Source of the DNA: a virus
Taxonomy: Duplodnaviria; Heunggongvirae; Uroviricota; Caudoviricetes
DNA: 20,300 nt
Virus record (IMG/VR): IMGVR_UViG_2634166457_000006
Location: 1 to 20,300 of that record
Strand: one strand, 5' to 3'
This document shows, in pieces, positions 5,327-16,334 of the stretch. How positions within the stretch are numbered: the first letter of the stretch is position 1; each line of letters begins with the position of its first letter. The notes under the pieces are model-generated. The model did no database searches. It had not been told where the DNA came from and saw only the letters and a list, made by a program, of their open reading frames with translations. Made by a program: the position numbers and the translations under genes.

Positions 5327-5502
5327 TGCAGCGGGTGCTTGAGGCTATCTGTCTCAGGCATGAACACCAAAAGGCAGATAGAGAAAAGCCCCAGTTAACA
5401 TTACGCGTCCTGCAAGACGCTTAACATTAATCTGAGGCTCAATCTATGAACGGCAAATCTAGGTTAGCCTCTTACGTGCCGAAAGGCAAGGAGAAGCAGG
5501 CT

Positions 5503-5658
5503 ATGAAGCAGCAAAAGGCGATGTTAGTCGCCCTGATCGTCATCTGTATTACCGTCATTGTGACGGCACTGGTAACGAGGAAAGACCTCTGCGAGGTACG
5601 AATCCGAACCGGCCAGACGGAGGTCGCTGTCTTCGCAGCTTACGAACCTGAGAAGTAA
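5503..5658 (+). CDS. hok: Hok/Gef-family type I toxin, 51 aa
   Basis: MKQQKAMLVALIVICITVIVTALVTRKDLCEVRIRTGQTEVAVFAAYEPEK closely matches Hok/Gef as recalled (TRKxLCE..R.G..EVA.F.AYE). AAGGAG SD 9 nt upstream. An in-frame upstream ATG at 5446 with GAGG SD gives a mok-like 70-codon frame. Confidence 0.8.
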   Translation: MKQQKAMLVALIVICITVIVTALVTRKDLCEVRIRTGQTEVAVFAAYEPEK

Positions 5659-8445: not shown

Positions 8446-8826
8446 ATGACTGAACGCATAGAATTTGTTTTGCCTTACCCGCCCACGGTGAACACCTACT
8501 GGCGACGTCGTGGCAGCACATATTTTGTATCAAAAGTCGGTGAGCGTTATCGCCGTGATGTGGCGCTAATTGTTCGCCAGCAGCGACTGAAATTAAGCCT
8601 GTCCGGAAGGCTGGCGATAAAGATTGTTGCAGAGCCGCCGGATAAGCGCCGTCGCGACCTGGATAATATCCTGAAAGCACCTCTGGATGCGCTGACGCAT
8701 GCGGGACTGCTTATCGACGACGAGCAGTTTGATGAAATTAATATTGTGCGCGGTCAGCCTGTATCTGGTGGACGGCTGGGCGTGAAGATTTACCAGATAA
8801 TGCATGAAGGGCAGGCTAAAAAATGA
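8446..8826 (+). CDS. rusA: Holliday-junction resolvase RusA
   Basis: RRRDLDNILKAPLDALTHAGLLIDDEQ...GGRL matches the RusA signature (E. coli RusA [25 protein letters not shown]). Confidence 0.85.
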   Translation: MTERIEFVLPYPPTVNTYWRRRGSTYFVSKVGERYRRDVALIVRQQRLKLSLSGRLAIKIVAEPPDKRRRDLDNILKAPLDALTHAGLLIDDEQFDEINIVRGQPVSGGRLGVKIYQIMHEGQAKK

Positions 8827-9644
8827 AACTGGAAGATTTACCGAAATACTACTCCCCAAAATCCCCCGGCCTGACTGATGCATCTGCCTCAACGTCAAAA
8901 GATGCGCTGAGTATCACTGATGTGATGGCAGCACAGGGCATGACACAGAATCGGGCTGAGATGGGGTTTTCTGCGTTCCTTGGGAAAATGGGCATCAGTA
9001 TGAATGACAGAGAGCGGGCAACAGAACTGCTGACAGAATATGCTCTCTGTCGGTGTGATGGCGTGGCGGCGTTAAGAAAACTTCCGGCAGAAATAAAACC
9101 GGTAGTGATGCGCATTATGGCTTCGTATGCTTTTGAGGATTATGCCCGGAGCGCGGCGAGCAAAAAACAGTGCCCATGCTGTCGCGGAAAAAAATTTATT
9201 GAAAGTGAGGTTTTTACAAACAAGGTGCAGTATCCGGATGGTAAGCCGCCAGTATGGGCAAAGTGTACAAAAGGCGTGTATCCGTCTTACTGGGAAGAAT
9301 GGAAAAAATTCAGGGAGGTGGTAAAAGTTGTCTGTCCGGAGTGTGGAGGGAAGGGAGATGTATCCGCCGCCTGTAAAGATTGTCGTGGGCGTGGCGTCGC
9401 CATTCATCGTGAAGAGTCGGAAAAACAGGGCGTGCCGGTTTTCAGAAACTGCCAGCGTTGTGGTGGACGTGGTTACGAAAGATTACCGTCAACGAAGGCA
9501 TTCAATGCCATATGTAATGTAACCTGCGCCATTTCTCTTGATGCATGGAAAAAAACGGTTAAACGTTTTTACGATACGCTGGTGGTGCAGTTTGATATTG
9601 AAGAGGCATGGGCAGAGCAACAGCTGAAGAGGGTGACCCGATAG
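8823..9644 (+). CDS. Q: Late-gene antiterminator Q (long type with Cys-rich zinc-binding region)
   Basis: Position after rusA and before a pR'-like promoter and tRNAs; multiple CxxC pairs; ATGA overlap with rusA. Confidence 0.7.
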   Translation: MKLEDLPKYYSPKSPGLTDASASTSKDALSITDVMAAQGMTQNRAEMGFSAFLGKMGISMNDRERATELLTEYALCRCDGVAALRKLPAEIKPVVMRIMASYAFEDYARSAASKKQCPCCRGKKFIESEVFTNKVQYPDGKPPVWAKCTKGVYPSYWEEWKKFREVVKVVCPECGGKGDVSAACKDCRGRGVAIHREESEKQGVPVFRNCQRCGGRGYERLPSTKAFNAICNVTCAISLDAWKKTVKRFYDTLVVQFDIEEAWAEQQLKRVTR

Positions 9645-9786: not shown

Positions 9787-9862
9787 GGCCCTTTAGCTCA
9801 GTGGTGAGAGCGAGCGACTCATAATCGCCAGGTCGCTGGTTCAAATCCAGCAAGGGCCACCA
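9787..9862 (+). tRNA. tRNA with CAT anticodon (Met or lysidine-type Ile2)
   Basis: Manual cloverleaf: acceptor GGCCCTT/AAGGGCC, anticodon loop CTCATAA, T-loop TTCAAAT, encoded CCA. Confidence 0.85.
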
Positions 9863-9867
9863 CCTTA

Positions 9868-9944
9868 CCGCCATTAGCTCATCAGGACAGAGCGCCAGCC
9901 TTCGAAGCTGGCTGCGCGGGGTTCGGGTCCCCGGTGGCGGTCCA
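9868..9944 (+). tRNA. tRNA-Arg (anticodon TCG)
   Basis: Manual cloverleaf: acceptor CCGCCAT/GTGGCGG, anticodon stem CCAGC/GCTGG, loop CTTCGAA, T-loop TTCGGGT, encoded CCA. Confidence 0.75.
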
Positions 9945-9957
9945 TAACCGACACCCT

Positions 9958-10034
9958 GCGTTGTCAGCTCAGCCGGACAGAGCAATTGCCTTCTGAGCAA
10001 TCGGTCACTGGTTCGAATCCAGTACGACGCGCCA
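9958..10034 (+). tRNA. tRNA-Arg (anticodon TCT, reads AGA/AGG)
   Basis: Manual cloverleaf: acceptor GCGTTGT/ACGACGC, anticodon stem ATTGC/GCAAT, loop CTTCTGA, T-loop TTCGAAT, encoded CCA. Confidence 0.85.
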
Positions 10035-10778: not shown

Positions 10779-10992
10779 ATAATGCTTGATTTTTTTATTT
10801 GCTGTTTATTAAAAATACTGCTGCATGGTGAATCCCCCTGAGCGGAGGGGCAATCAGCAAGAAGGAATATGGGATAATCGCGGATTCAGGTGCTGATACT
10901 GAATTCACCGGGAGGCACCCGGCACCATGCACTGCCACAAAAGTGTTATTTCTGTTTTTTCTCAGGCTATCATTGTTATCCCTTTATTTCCG

Positions 10993-11104: not shown

Positions 11105-11989
11105 ATGTCGATTAAACATTACGATGTTGTCAGGGCCGCATCGCCGTCAGACCTTGCGGAAAAGCTGACACAAAAACTGAAAGAAGGCTGGCAGCCGTTT
11201 GGTGGCCCGGTGGCCATAACCCCTTATACCCTGATGCAGGCGGTGACGGCAGAAGGTGATGTGGAGGATGACGTCAGTGGCCCGTCCGGCGGTGAGGGGG
11301 CAGGCTCTGGTGGAGCGGATACCTGTGACACCGCAACCGAAACCGTGCTGTTTTACCGGGCGGCTGATGGCTGGCCTGCAGACCTTGGCTGGACACGGAC
11401 GAACGGAGCCGCAGAGTTCACTGACGACACCGGAGCAGAAAGCGGGAAGGCCCTGCGCATAAGCAAGGATTCAGATGCGGGTGTTTCATGGACGTTAACG
11501 AAAGAGATGCCATCACCGGCTGACCTCCTGACCCGTGGTGGTGTGGTCAGCTGCCGCTTTAAACTGGAAGGCGACCTTGTGGCGAACCAGTACGCGTTTG
11601 CCCTGTACCTTCGTGTCCCGGCAGCCTCATTGCCTGAGGGTGTGACGCTGGCAGAAAGTGGTGGCGCGAACAGCAATCCCTGCCTGCTGGCGTTCTTCAT
11701 ACGGACCGATGCGACCAGAACCAATTTGTATTTCCGCAAACAGAATGACGTCAGTGTCGGGACATATGGTGCCTTTGACAATGAATGGCACACGCTGGAG
11801 CTTCAGTTTGCCGGAAACAGCAGTATTGATGTGACGCCGGTACTTGACGGTACGGCCGGAATGCCGTTCACGCTGACGAAGTCGGCAGTGAATGTTCCGG
11901 AGAATACGTTCACTGTGACAGACACTGCGTCAGCTGCAACTTACAGCACACTGTTTGAGTACGTGACGGTGGAGGTGAATGCAGCGTGA
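11105..11989 (+). CDS. DUF1737-like N-terminal domain protein with a C-terminal beta-rich domain, 294 aa
   Basis: N-terminus MSIKHYDVVRAASPSDLAEKLTQKLKEGWQPFGGP fits the DUF1737 pattern seen in prophage late-region proteins; Gly/acidic linker; C-terminal 200 aa unassigned. GGGAGAAA SD. Confidence 0.55.
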   Translation: MSIKHYDVVRAASPSDLAEKLTQKLKEGWQPFGGPVAITPYTLMQAVTAEGDVEDDVSGPSGGEGAGSGGADTCDTATETVLFYRAADGWPADLGWTRTNGAAEFTDDTGAESGKALRISKDSDAGVSWTLTKEMPSPADLLTRGGVVSCRFKLEGDLVANQYAFALYLRVPAASLPEGVTLAESGGANSNPCLLAFFIRTDATRTNLYFRKQNDVSVGTYGAFDNEWHTLELQFAGNSSIDVTPVLDGTAGMPFTLTKSAVNVPENTFTVTDTASAATYSTLFEYVTVEVNAA

Positions 11990-12070: not shown

Positions 12071-12295
12071 ATGGTGAGAGTGAACAATATATCAGATATC
12101 GCAACGGGGGTTTCTTACACCACCTCCTCGGTCAGTGGTGGTTACTGGCTGCTCCAGTTGCTGGATGCGGTGAGCCCGTCCCAGTGGGCCGGGATTGGTG
12201 TCCTGGCGAGTGTGTTTCTGGGGGTGCTGACGTACCTGACGAATCTGTATTTCAGGATTAAAGAGGACCGTCGTAAGGCGGCGCGGGGAGAGTAG
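12071..12295 (+). CDS. S: Class II holin, phage 21 S21-like
   Basis: [50 protein letters not shown] is near-identical in pattern to S21 as recalled; strong GGGGAGGTGG SD. Confidence 0.8.
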
Positions 12296-12550
12296 TCGAT
12301 GAATAAAAAATACGAACTGGTTGTAAAATGAATATTTCTAACTGAAAAAACGTTCCCTGAGGTGAGAAAAGGTCACAGGCAATCAATAACAGGACGTGAT
12401 GAAAGGTCCTTGCCTTTGTATGCTTTCTCTTTAGATAGCAGCAGATACTGAAAATTTGAGTTGTCGGGGAGTCAGGGGCACAGCTGCGCAAGAGGCGGTC
12501 ATTGTGATTCCATTGATATCCTGTATGCCATGAAGGGCAGGATTTTATGG

Positions 12551-12865
12551 CTACCTGAGCTTTGGTGATAGTAAGTTGAAAATTCGCATTTTTTGCTGAC
12601 ATGCGTAACGAGAATCCCATAAGCAGGGAGGACTTAATTCTTCATTAACCCATGCGTTGATATTATGTTTCAGCCGTTGAAGCATCAGCGGTGTTAATGT
12701 TGTGGTAATAATATCCAGCGTTTTATGTGAGAGTTTACCGTAAGGGTCTGCAAGAATGCTGCTCGTTGCTTCGTTATTGTCCGCCATCTGAAGAAGTAAC
12801 TCTGATTTAACGTTTTCTGTCATGAGTTGTAAAAATCTTCTGCGCAAACTTTCTTTACTGTTCAT
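12551..12865 (-). CDS. Hypothetical protein, 104 aa, reverse-oriented insert between holin and endolysin
   Basis: Only sizeable minus-strand ORF in an AT-rich stretch between two + strand lysis genes; weak SD; no family recognised. Confidence 0.4.
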   Translation of the reverse strand: MNSKESLRRRFLQLMTENVKSELLLQMADNNEATSSILADPYGKLSHKTLDIITTTLTPLMLQRLKHNINAWVNEELSPPCLWDSRYACQQKMRIFNLLSPKLR

Positions 12866-12982
12866 TTATAAGGCTTCATTTGTTGTTATCTGCTGTGTCT
12901 CAAGGGATATGTTTACGAGACCTGCCATGAGTGTTGGATTATATACCTAACATATCAAGAGATTAGAAAACGATAAATCCCC

Positions 12983-13516
12983 ATGAACGGAAAAATCAGA
13001 TACGGCCTGTCGGCTGCCGTTCTGGCGCTGATTGGCGCAGGTGCTTCTGCACCTGTAATTCTCGATCAGTTTCTGGATGAAAAAGAAGGTAACCACACCA
13101 CAGCATACCGTGATGGTGCGGGTATCTGGACCATCTGCCGCGGTGCCATTCTGGTGGATGGTAAACCTGTCTTCCCCGGCATGAAGCTGACGAAGGAAAA
13201 ATGCGCGCAGGTTAATGCCATCGAACGAGATAAGGCGCTGGCGTGGGTGGAGCGCAATATTAAAGTACCACTGACCGAACCCCAGAAAGCGGGTATCGCG
13301 TCATTCTGTCCGTATAACATTGGCCCCGGTAAGTGTTTTCCGTCGACGTTTTATAAACGGATTAATGCCGGAGATCGAAAAGGAGCCTGTGAGGCGATTC
13401 GCTGGTGGATTAAGGATGGTGGGCGCGATTGCCGCATACGTTCAAATAACTGCTATGGACAGGTTATTCGTCGTGACCAGGAAAGCGCATTAGCCTGTTG
13501 GGGGATAGATCAGTGA
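12983..13516 (+). CDS. R: SAR endolysin (T4-type lysozyme with N-terminal signal-anchor-release domain)
   Basis: N-terminal [22 protein letters not shown]-like segment followed by an E...D...T catalytic spacing ([20 protein letters not shown]), as in phage 21 R21. Confidence 0.85.
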
Positions 13517-13980
13517 GCAGAGTCGCCGCGATTATTTATGCTCTGGTTATCTGCATCATCGTCTGCCTGTCGTGGGCGGTCAATCATTACCGTGATAACG
13601 CCATCGCCTACAAAGAACAGCGTAATAAAAAAGTCAGTGAGCTGAAGCAGGTGATCGCCACCATCGCTGACATGCAGCAGCGTCAGCGTGATGTTGCTGC
13701 GCTCGATGCAAAGTACTCGAGAGAATTAGCCAATGCGAAAGCTGAAAATGAAACTCTGCGCGCTGATGTTGCCGCTGGTCGTAAGCGCCTGCGGGTCAAT
13801 GCCAGTTGCTCCGCAGCCGTGCGTGAAGCCACCGGACCCACCAGCGTGGATAATGCAGCCGTCCCCAGACTGGCAGACACCGCTGAACGGGATTATTTCA
13901 CCCTCAGAGAACGGTTGATGACGATGCAGAAGCAACTGGAAGGGGCACAGGAATATATCCGTACCCAGTGCATTCGGTGA
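13513..13980 (+). CDS. Rz: Spanin, inner-membrane subunit Rz
   Basis: (V)[30 protein letters not shown]... closely matches lambda Rz; GTG start overlapping the endolysin stop (the ORF-track start 13498 is TTG). Confidence 0.8.
13733..13918 (+). CDS. Rz1: Spanin, outer-membrane lipoprotein Rz1, embedded in the +1 frame of Rz
   Basis: [20 protein letters not shown] lipobox and proline-rich [14 protein letters not shown]...[13 protein letters not shown] matching lambda Rz1. Confidence 0.75.
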
Positions 13981-14453
13981 TATTTTATTATAGGAATGTT
14001 ACTGATAACGTTAAAATAATTTAACGGAAAAGTCAGTTCCGGACTTTATAGTGTGCTCACATCCTGGCCAAAAACGATTTCTGTGATAAATATTTTGAAT
14101 ATTATTTACAGGCAAATGAAGTGGATAGCATGGATGAAAATATTACAACAGGGTATGAAGCATATGCCCATATTGTATGGACAGAGAAAGCAAAAGCACT
14201 GTACTTCCTTGTGTTGCCACGATACCTGACTGAGATATGATTTTTTTGGTTTTGAGTATATATTTAGCGTTTTTAGTTCAGTAATGGCTTATTCAACAAA
14301 AAACAATAAATAAGGTAATTGTTTTTTTCATTCATTGTTTAAATTGATTTCAGTGTCTCATTTTGCTGTTTTACTATCTATTATTTTTTATTATTATCTT
14401 GTTAAGGGAAGATAAATTCAGGATTGTAGTCAGTAGATAATCGGAGGTCACTT

Positions 14454-14768
14454 ATGCTACATGATCACCTGGCAGAATGTCTGGAGAAAAAAGGATTGTA
14501 CCGGAGAGCAGCTGAACGATGGGCAAAAGTGATGGTACAGCTAAGTGATGACCAGAAAAGGAAAGTAGCGGCACAGAAACGAGCAGAGTGTTTGCGTAAG
14601 GCGCGCCGGACTCCGGTTTCACCGGTGAACCTGACAGAAATAAAACAAGCGGTCAACAGACTACATTCTGAGTTGGGAATGGGATTTGAAGAGCGGCGGG
14701 TATTCCGACGATATAAAGGGACAGGAGAACAGAATACGTCCGGAAACGCGCGGTCAAAAAAATGCTAA
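14454..14768 (+). CDS. PerC-family transcriptional regulator-like protein (Pch-like), 104 aa
   Basis: N-terminal LEKKGLYRRAAERWAKVM resembles the PerC/Pch signature as recalled; strong GGAGGT SD; preceded by about 470 bp of AT-rich non-coding DNA. Confidence 0.5.
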   Translation: MLHDHLAECLEKKGLYRRAAERWAKVMVQLSDDQKRKVAAQKRAECLRKARRTPVSPVNLTEIKQAVNRLHSELGMGFEERRVFRRYKGTGEQNTSGNARSKKC

Positions 14769-14804
14769 AAAATATCTGAGAGAGTTATTGCCTGTCACCA
14801 TAAG

Positions 14805-14833
14805 AAAAAGCGACTTTAGTGGTCGCTTTTTGT
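14805..14833. terminator. Rho-independent terminator between convergent genes, possibly bidirectional
   Basis: GCGAC-tttagtg-GTCGC hairpin flanked by an A-run upstream and T-run downstream. Confidence 0.6.
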
Positions 14834-14849
14834 GTCATATATAAGCCGT

Positions 14850-15074
14850 TTAAGTAAACCTGTCTGAACAGGTGCTCTGGTCGTGTTTGTCTTTGTTGGG
14901 TACAAATTGAGAATGTTTTTCATTCATTAGTCTTCTTCTGCAGGCTTCAATAACCCACGCTGAAAAATTTCCTGAACCTTTCTGGTCAAGAGCGATGTTA
15001 ATTTGTTCAATCATCTGGTTTGGAAATCGGATGTTGCGGGTTGTTGTTCTGCAGGCCCGGTTTTTCGATGACAT
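14850..15074 (-). CDS. Ribbon-helix-helix-like DNA-binding protein, 74 aa
   Basis: NIRFPNQMIEQINIALDQKGSGNFSAWVIEACRRRL has a strand-helix-loop-helix pattern; good minus-strand SD (AAGGAA, 7 nt). Confidence 0.5.
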   Translation of the reverse strand: MSSKNRACRTTTRNIRFPNQMIEQINIALDQKGSGNFSAWVIEACRRRLMNEKHSQFVPNKDKHDQSTCSDRFT

Positions 15075-15771: not shown

Positions 15772-16334
15772 GTGCTGACGACGCAAAAACGAAAATTTGC
15801 GCTGGCGCTCATGTCCGGGAAAAACAAAACGGCGTCAGCCATTGCTGCCGGTTATTCGGCGAAGACAGCCAGGGTTAAAGGCTCGCAGCTGGCAAAAGAT
15901 CCGGAAGTGCTCGCGTTTATAGCACGCAAAGAAGGCGAGACGGTGGAGGTGGATGAGGTTCCCGTTTACCGGCAGAAAAAACAGAGCAGGAGAATAAACC
16001 CCGTCGCTGTGAGACGGCTGCAATTCCACAGCCGGACGAAACCAATCCGGAGATGTCACCGCCCATGGTGATGTCTCCTGGTATTGAATATATGGAGGAT
16101 GGTCTTCCCGATCCTGTGAAAGCCATGGGGCGGATCCTGGTGGAAAACCTGAGCATTGACCCTAAACTGGCACTGGATGCAGCCTGGCGTCTGGCGCAGT
16201 TCACGCACCATAAAAAAGGGGATGCCGGTAAAAAATCGGCAAAAGGTGATGCCGCGAAAAAAGCGACTAACCGTTTTGCGGTGCCACCACCACCCCGCCT
16301 GGTGGTGAATAACGATAATGAGGACAGTGGATGA
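15772..16334 (+). CDS. Terminase small subunit, apparently split over two reading frames (15772-16071 and 16053-16334)
   Basis: N-terminal part has the TerS HTH signature (SAIAAGYSAKTARVKGSQL). The second frame is open from 15957 and ends with ATGA coupling to terminase large at 16331. The frames switch near an A6 run at 15976-15981. Confidence 0.5.

Follow-up and report, generated by a model that had tools for sequence, protein, structure and literature searches.

The window (by which we mean the whole 20.3-kb stretch of DNA that was analysed) is prophage from end to end, and between its lysis genes (holin, lysozyme, Rz/Rz1) and its packaging genes (YlcI-like, HNH, terminase) sits a pch gene, at 14454-14768 on the + strand, for a 104-aa PerC-family regulator of the group-1 (PchA/B/C) type. 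Upstream of it lie the Q antiterminator (8823-9644, + strand, as are all the late genes) and the lysis cassette, with a P21-type holin (12071-12295), a lysozyme (12983-13516) and Rz (13498-13980, + strand; Pfam Phage_lysis, E 6.3e-49), in which Rz1 is embedded (13733-13918). The 473 bp from the Rz stop to the pch ATG (13981-14453, + strand) make up an AT-rich leader, the putative regulatory region of the gene. On the other side, a predicted intrinsic terminator hairpin (14805-14831) appears to be common to pch, on the + strand, and to a convergent DUF3950/YlcI-YnfO gene on the - strand (14850-15074, 74 aa; Pfam DUF3950, E 1.5e-19; NCBIfam YlcI_YnfO_N).

A few further observations concern the rest of the prophage. 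An Rfam match to the sok antitoxin RNA (RF01794, 112 bits) at 5333-5508, in the early region, points to a hok/sok-type toxin-antitoxin locus. Three tRNA genes lie directly downstream of Q, as in Stx-type phages, and a match to the STnc100 sRNA (RF02076, 105.8 bits) lies further downstream of them, all in the region of 9787-10031 and 10797-10981. The nanS-p-like ORF at 11105-11989 (294 aa) has DUF1737 and DUF6645 and is devoid of the SASA esterase domain; its homologues in related prophages (contig L011, O55:H7) have 617 aa with SASA, so that the form in the window is either truncated or an alternative one. Holin and lysozyme are separated by a 687-bp gap (12296-12982), the same two genes abutting in an O55:H7 relative. 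The lysis cassette thus seems to have received another cargo insertion here. The gap contains a minus-strand ORF (12551-12865, 104 aa) that has no Pfam match and matches phrog_1853 (unknown function; E 1.4e-45), but only from position 58 to position 158 of a 159-position profile, so that its N-terminus may be missing; public gene calls for it vary (78, 90 or 104 aa).

The pch ORF is 315 nt long, starts with ATG and is preceded by a GGAGG Shine-Dalgarno sequence at 14443-14447. The initial annotation had recognised a 104-aa ORF with a PerC-like N-terminal signature and had proposed a profile search against the PerC family as a check. This search gives 148.8 bits with Pfam PerC (PF06069), for a cut-off of 22.6 (E 5.4e-44), and aligns residues 1-89 of Pch on profile positions 1-89 of 90, so that the signature turns out to belong to a full-length family match; PHROG families labelled transcriptional activator also match. 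Word-indexed protein searches, with and without a profile, returned close relatives only. An exhaustive search through 1.84 billion representatives yielded no more than 84 clusters (50% identity), and 47 of the family members it found, together with the Pch of the window, form the 48-member alignment from which the structure model discussed below was also made. In this alignment, Pch carries all the invariant or near-invariant residues of the family (L10, E11, G14, R17, R18, A19, A20, R22, W23 and C46), in other words both the N-terminal motif xAExLExxGLYRRAAxRWxEVM and the conserved Cys46.

The protein is residue-for-residue identical to an O157:H7 chromosomal protein (WP_001302717.1) and differs from the O55:H7 copy at a single position (103/104 identical). 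Its exact 104-aa sequence occurs in 10,153 index blocks of a public collection, O157:H7 chromosomes included, under the source names "PerC family transcriptional regulator" and "PchABC family transcriptional regulator" (UniRef: PchABC family). Group-1 Pch proteins are recognised by near-identity to the 104-aa proteins of O157:H7, as opposed to the PchD or PchE groups, and by being encoded in a lambdoid prophage, directly after the lysis genes; both features are found here. Judged from its sequence, the ORF is a group-1 pch gene of EHEC and atypical EPEC. The interpretation of the initial annotation was thus essentially right, but it named neither the already characterised pchA/B/C genes nor their translational control via a helix between Shine-Dalgarno and anti-Shine-Dalgarno and the sRNA DicF.

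The gene does not stand alone. Homology with prophages that are devoid of pch is lost at 13971-13991 and picked up again at 14927-14940, within the YlcI-like gene, whose 3' end (14850 to ~14926, the last ~26 codons) belongs to the pch side of the boundary. By these breakpoints, the leader, pch, the terminator and the 3' end of the YlcI-like gene are one discrete cargo module of ~950 bp (~13981-14927). We surveyed the same place in related prophages with a chimeric query in which Rz was joined straight to the YlcI-HNH segment. The interval between Rz and YlcI is occupied there by PerC, by a TonB-family gene (O157:H7 86-24), by iss/bor, by a 71-aa hypothetical gene, by a DUF1398 gene or by no annotated gene, and the alternative contents of the pch-less relatives have no detectable similarity to 13981-14927. 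The pch-less versions of the slot have in common a segment of ~180 bp that is absent from the pch module (loci L021-L024). From this comparison, the Rz-YlcI interval can be described as a cargo-swap slot across E. coli lambdoid prophages. The word "insert", used in the initial annotation, is a fair description of a discrete module in such a slot, since relatives whose Rz and YlcI/HNH/terminase genes are homologous have different cargo there, or nothing. The module also has several attributes of a moron: sharp boundaries, absence from homologous phages and a terminator of its own.

This terminator consists of an 11-bp stem (AAAAAGCGACU/GGUCGCUUUUU), located 36 nt beyond the pch stop codon and conserved across copies; the 85-nt region around it folds with -19.5 kcal/mol (z -2.6). 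The stem stands between a 5' A-run and a 3' T-run, an arrangement that would allow termination from either direction. A simple terminator scanner missed the hairpin at 14805-14831; the probable cause is base pairing between the U-run and the A-run that precedes the stem, the very pairing that makes the hairpin bidirectional. The strong terminator previously proposed at the end of the gene is therefore real, but it lies outside the interval to which it had been assigned, and which ended at 14768.

The leader differs sharply in composition from its surroundings, with 30.4% GC vs 51.2% for the whole window, and the 200 bp of lowest GC content in the window (14241-14440, 23.5%) are found inside it, positions 14296-14400 having 19% GC only. 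Tracts of A4 or T4 are 2.5 times as dense in the leader as window-wide (31.7 vs 12.8 per kb). Conservation along the leader was assessed by aligning 13 distinct copies, taken from contigs with the same lysozyme, from contigs with the same Pch and from O55:H7. This footprint is very uneven. A block of 86 bp (14027-14112) is 93-95% identical across leader types, vs 74-82% for the neighbouring segments, which makes it a candidate regulator-binding region. A hypervariable T-rich tract (14296-14385), with 27-58% identity to the other types of leader, contrasts with this block, and the last 70 bp, which include the Shine-Dalgarno sequence, are better conserved again. Inside the conserved block, at 14081-14111, lies a 31-bp imperfect palindrome, CTGTGATAAATATT-TTG-AATATTATTTACAG, which shows up as a hairpin in folding and is unchanged in all 13 leader variants. 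We regard it as an operator-like candidate site for a dimeric regulator, possibly LrhA or another factor. Honda et al. reportedly placed, in 2009, the response to LrhA in a segment about 390-420 bp upstream of pchA; this segment would presumably fall in the conserved block here, a coincidence to which we give no weight. The block with its palindrome and the hypervariable tract are in any case natural targets for the mapping of regulator sites and for studies of copy-specific regulation.

One could ask if the leader itself specifies a small protein or an sRNA, and is not merely regulatory DNA. It does contain two ORFs, of 58 aa (14053-14229) and 39 aa (14121-14240), one public annotation calls a 46-aa gene in a homologous leader (L019), and the segment 13975-14060 folds better than its shuffled versions (z -2.5). 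However, both ORFs are broken in other copies by stops, indels or frame shifts, and their substitutions are not codon-like, the variable sites being distributed over the three codon positions as [7,12,6] and [12,7,10], with no excess at the third. Searches of the leader ORFs against Pfam and NCBIfam gave no matches, nor did Rfam over 13900-14900, either at the gathering threshold or at E<=1, and neither strand of the conserved block itself has a fold signal (z +0.3 and +0.7). We thus consider a leader-encoded product extremely improbable, and the leader appears to be non-coding. With 473 bp, 30.4% GC and no conserved ORF, it matches well the ~470 bp of strongly AT-rich non-coding DNA announced by the initial annotation.

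The same composition makes silencing of the leader by H-NS plausible, by analogy, as it fits both the AT-richness and the density of A/T tracts. The high-affinity H-NS 10-mer TCGATAAATT, searched with at most 2 mismatches, is not enriched (20 occurrences in the window vs 17.2 expected, 2 of them in the leader), and the literature searched yielded no paper that demonstrates such silencing for pch.

Promoter searches are less telling. Sigma-70 scans of three leader variants revealed no consistent promoter: the leader of the window contains two matches, TTGCCA-16-TATGAT (14214-14241) and TTTACT-16-TATTAT (14370-14397), but such matches are at chance level (6 found vs 3.2 +/- 1.9 expected), they differ from one leader variant to another, and with an unchanged threshold the O157-type leader gives no match. 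This result fits a weak, activator-dependent promoter. In a lysogen, transcription of pch would start from such a promoter within the 473-bp leader, and would probably be damped by H-NS too. Several inputs are known for pchA and pchB of O157. LrhA is presented in PMC4456613 as a direct activator of both genes; Lrp/LeuO with butyrate form a further input (PMC4456613), as do NtrC and sigma-S (PMC10714755, PMC13012123), and the SOS response enhances group-1 pch genes (PMC6265319). By analogy, these inputs may also act on the pch gene of the window. The published regulation may nevertheless not transfer as such, because the leader is only ~82% identical to the O157 leaders that have been studied and its T-rich promoter-proximal tract is essentially replaced.

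A second source of transcripts can be envisaged. Since pch is co-oriented with Q and the late operon, all on the + strand, Q-antiterminated late transcripts would be expected to read through the pch module upon prophage induction; such a read-through, for which we argue by analogy, is consistent with the reported SOS enhancement. It could be pushed further, by supposing that pch has no working promoter of its own, that the leader is a spacer or decayed DNA, and that the gene rides as a passenger on Q-dependent late transcription, being expressed upon induction alone. The chance-level promoter matches, the position of pch downstream of Q in the orientation of the late operon and the SOS enhancement of group-1 genes (PMC6265319) would all agree with this, as would the fact that the leader has diverged to the same extent as the neighbouring Rz gene (about 82%). 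We nevertheless consider it improbable: the 86-bp block and the 31-bp palindrome are conserved far above the remaining leader in all variants, which argues for a function, the entire leader accompanies pch in a single module and is missing from relatives that have no pch, and LrhA, Lrp and other factors control pchA/B of O157 in lysogens that have not been induced (PMC4456613). Expression is most likely under control at three levels, the leader promoter, a translational helix and late read-through.

The translational level deserves special attention. Minimum-free-energy and centroid folds both pair the segment 14443-14458 on the + strand (GG..GUCACUUA.GCU), which contains the Shine-Dalgarno GGAGG and the start codon, with an anti-Shine-Dalgarno at 14539-14553, inside the coding sequence, thus predicting a long-range inhibitory helix. 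The duplex between the two arms has an energy of -16.4 kcal/mol, vs -7.2 +/- 2.4 for shuffled partners (2 in 1000 were as good), and 14539-14553 is the best partner of the Shine-Dalgarno arm anywhere in the coding sequence. A DicF-complementary site (14545-14559) overlaps the anti-Shine-Dalgarno, the two together covering 14539-14559 (+ strand): nt 1-8 of K-12 DicF (UUUCUGGU) are the exact complement of ACCAGAAA (~14551-14558), directly 3' of the anti-Shine-Dalgarno, with further pairing into the latter. This complementarity is short, and the duplex of this site with the whole sRNA is not special among tiles of the window (z about -1.2); for DicF we rely on the short seed and on the published mechanism. 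The 3' arm of the helix and the DicF site are invariant in the 13 copies, and the only variant of the 5' arm, a change of C14449 to U in O157-type copies, retains the pairing as G-U.

This arrangement corresponds to a known mechanism. As two reviews of Melson & Kendall 2019 summarise it, an anti-Shine-Dalgarno inside the pchA coding sequence hides the ribosome-binding site, and pairing of DicF at this place releases it (PMC7769764, PMC7873438). In the window, the helix that joins the Shine-Dalgarno and start codon to the anti-Shine-Dalgarno, ~90 nt into the coding sequence, would likewise hold translation off, until DicF, by pairing beside and over the anti-Shine-Dalgarno, releases it. With the predicted helix and the adjacent DicF-complementary site, the published pchA-type translational switch thus appears to be present. 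Compared with the switch of O157:H7, the Shine-Dalgarno, the anti-Shine-Dalgarno and the DicF site are the same, the difference being base 14449, which is C in the window and T in most O157 copies, so that the predicted helix is 2.2 kcal/mol stronger in the window.

The pch cassette is widespread, being present in 673 of 5,426 complete E. coli genomes (~12%), with a median of 3 copies per positive genome and a constant layout (Rz, a gap of ~460 bp, PerC, then DUF3950 on the opposite strand). The leader allele of the window is much less common. It is ~82% identical to every copy in the 5,426 complete genomes, none of which contains the allele itself, and is found with 99-100% identity in eight draft-genome contigs, one of which (GCA_001186315.2, KQ241476.1) is 100% identical to the window over 6.5 kb. 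An exact 40-mer of the leader had no match in GTDB contigs sampled at one genome per species. Compared with the copies from complete genomes, Rz is 82.8% identical, the pch coding sequence 98-100% and the terminator region 96-100%. In these alignments, pch and its terminator are a nearly invariant core within diverged flanks, which is what one expects from lambdoid mosaic recombination or from gene conversion among copies in one genome. Keeping the 86-bp block and exchanging the T-rich promoter-proximal tract, the rare leader may have rewired the timing of pch expression in this lineage.

Is this gene still of use to its host? A 1-bp deletion near 15976, in an A-run, divides the terS gene (Terminase_2, 15772-16334) into two ORFs (99 aa and 93 aa), as seen against the intact 187-aa gene of contig L003. 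Either the prophage is defective because of this frameshift, or the draft assembly contains a sequencing error in the homopolymer. One could go on to propose that pch is a silent relic, an intact gene in a defective prophage and in a host without LEE, with no current role, and could add to the split of terS the lack of an esterase domain in the nanS-p-like gene and the incomplete PHROG match of the ORF in the holin-lysozyme gap, which is limited to the C-terminal two thirds of the profile. We find this quite improbable, because the state of pch itself speaks against decay: the protein is 100% identical to the functional O157:H7 type, the few variable sites of the gene among the 13 copies occupy first and third codon positions and never the second ([3,0,6]), and its Shine-Dalgarno, anti-Shine-Dalgarno and terminator are all intact. 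Moreover, functional pch genes normally reside in cryptic prophages (PMC3355084).

We are thus highly confident that the region corresponds to a pch cargo module, a "moron", of a lambdoid prophage, encoding a group-1 Pch that is most likely under the control of a leader promoter, of the putative DicF-responsive helix and of late read-through. Pch is a master switch of the type III secretion virulence programme in EHEC and atypical EPEC, and the presence of its gene therefore flags a prophage as relevant to virulence. Group-1 pch genes are needed for the expression of ler and espA, for LEE to be fully expressed and for adherence (PMC6265319; also PMC4456613). Pch turns on LEE1 by lifting the silencing exerted by H-NS/StpA/Hha/YdgT, and it activates LEE1 only if the promoter is silenced by these proteins, the occupancy of H-NS then falling and the nucleoprotein complex being altered (PMC4764244). 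The Pch of the window would act in the same way, associating with the LEE1 (ler) promoter and displacing or remodelling the H-NS/StpA/Hha silencing complex, so that Ler and the type III secretion regulon are turned on; both LEE1 activation and the anti-H-NS action are here extrapolated from the literature, by analogy.

How a protein like Pch reaches its targets is less obvious from its predicted structure. The AlphaFold2 model, built from the 48-sequence alignment, has a mean pLDDT of 84.6 (above 90 over residues 1-50) and exhibits four helices (5-13, 16-29, 33-50, 60-73) followed by a disordered basic tail, in line with the small all-helical proteins, of about 90-105 aa, that are typical of the PerC family. 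The confident part (residues 1-50) comprises three helices, whose best structural matches are TPR hairpins. A Foldseek search of the model against the PDB gave nothing significant, a sequence search of the PDB found no relative of Pch, and neither a helix-turn-helix nor any other DNA-binding fold is detectable in the model. The model suggests a fold of the TPR-like helical type, and not a helix-turn-helix. One may then speculate that PerC and Pch are not conventional DNA-binding activators, but helical adaptors of a TPR-like build, for which a protein partner in the nucleoid complex provides access to LEE1 and further AT-rich loci; we present this as a tentative idea, which we consider rather unlikely. 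The displacement of H-NS in vitro is described for crude extracts, not for purified Pch (PMC4764244).

The module can be compared with several known systems. Lambda-type bor/iss genes use the same slot between Rz and the YlcI/packaging genes and are also small, self-contained cargo with functions in host phenotype. They differ in that iss/bor codes for an outer-membrane lipoprotein, from the opposite strand, and does not resemble the pch module in sequence. Ler and other anti-H-NS derepressors resemble Pch, according to the literature, in lifting H-NS/StpA silencing at AT-rich promoters acquired horizontally (PMC4764244), but Ler and Pch are unrelated in fold. Closer to Pch is PerC of the EPEC EAF plasmid, founder of PF06069, which belongs to the same family, has the same N-terminal helix motif and, as reported in PMC4764244, the same target, LEE1/ler. 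PerC is plasmid-borne, in the perABC operon under PerA (PMC4456613), whereas the pch gene of the window is prophage cargo with its own leader. More distant members of the PerC family are 30-45% identical to the Pch of the window.

The closest counterparts are PchA, PchB and PchC of EHEC O157:H7, reportedly characterised by Iyoda and Watanabe in 2004 and by Porter et al. in 2005. They were also treated by Fukui et al. 2016 (PMC4764244). The gene, its position in the prophage, its regulon and the DicF switch are all already published, and the window adds an instance to them, nothing new in kind. The mapped boundaries of the module and the cargo-swap slot are of modest added value, as is the prediction of a TPR-like fold, and the uncommon leader allele on an unchanged gene, with the leader footprint, are minor additions. 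The 104-aa protein (WP_001302717.1) and the terminator are the same in O157:H7 and in the window, as is the place, with Rz, leader and pch followed by the YlcI-like gene and terminase; what distinguishes the module of the window from PchA/PchB/PchC is its leader, ~82% identical overall and 27-58% in the promoter-proximal T-rich tract.
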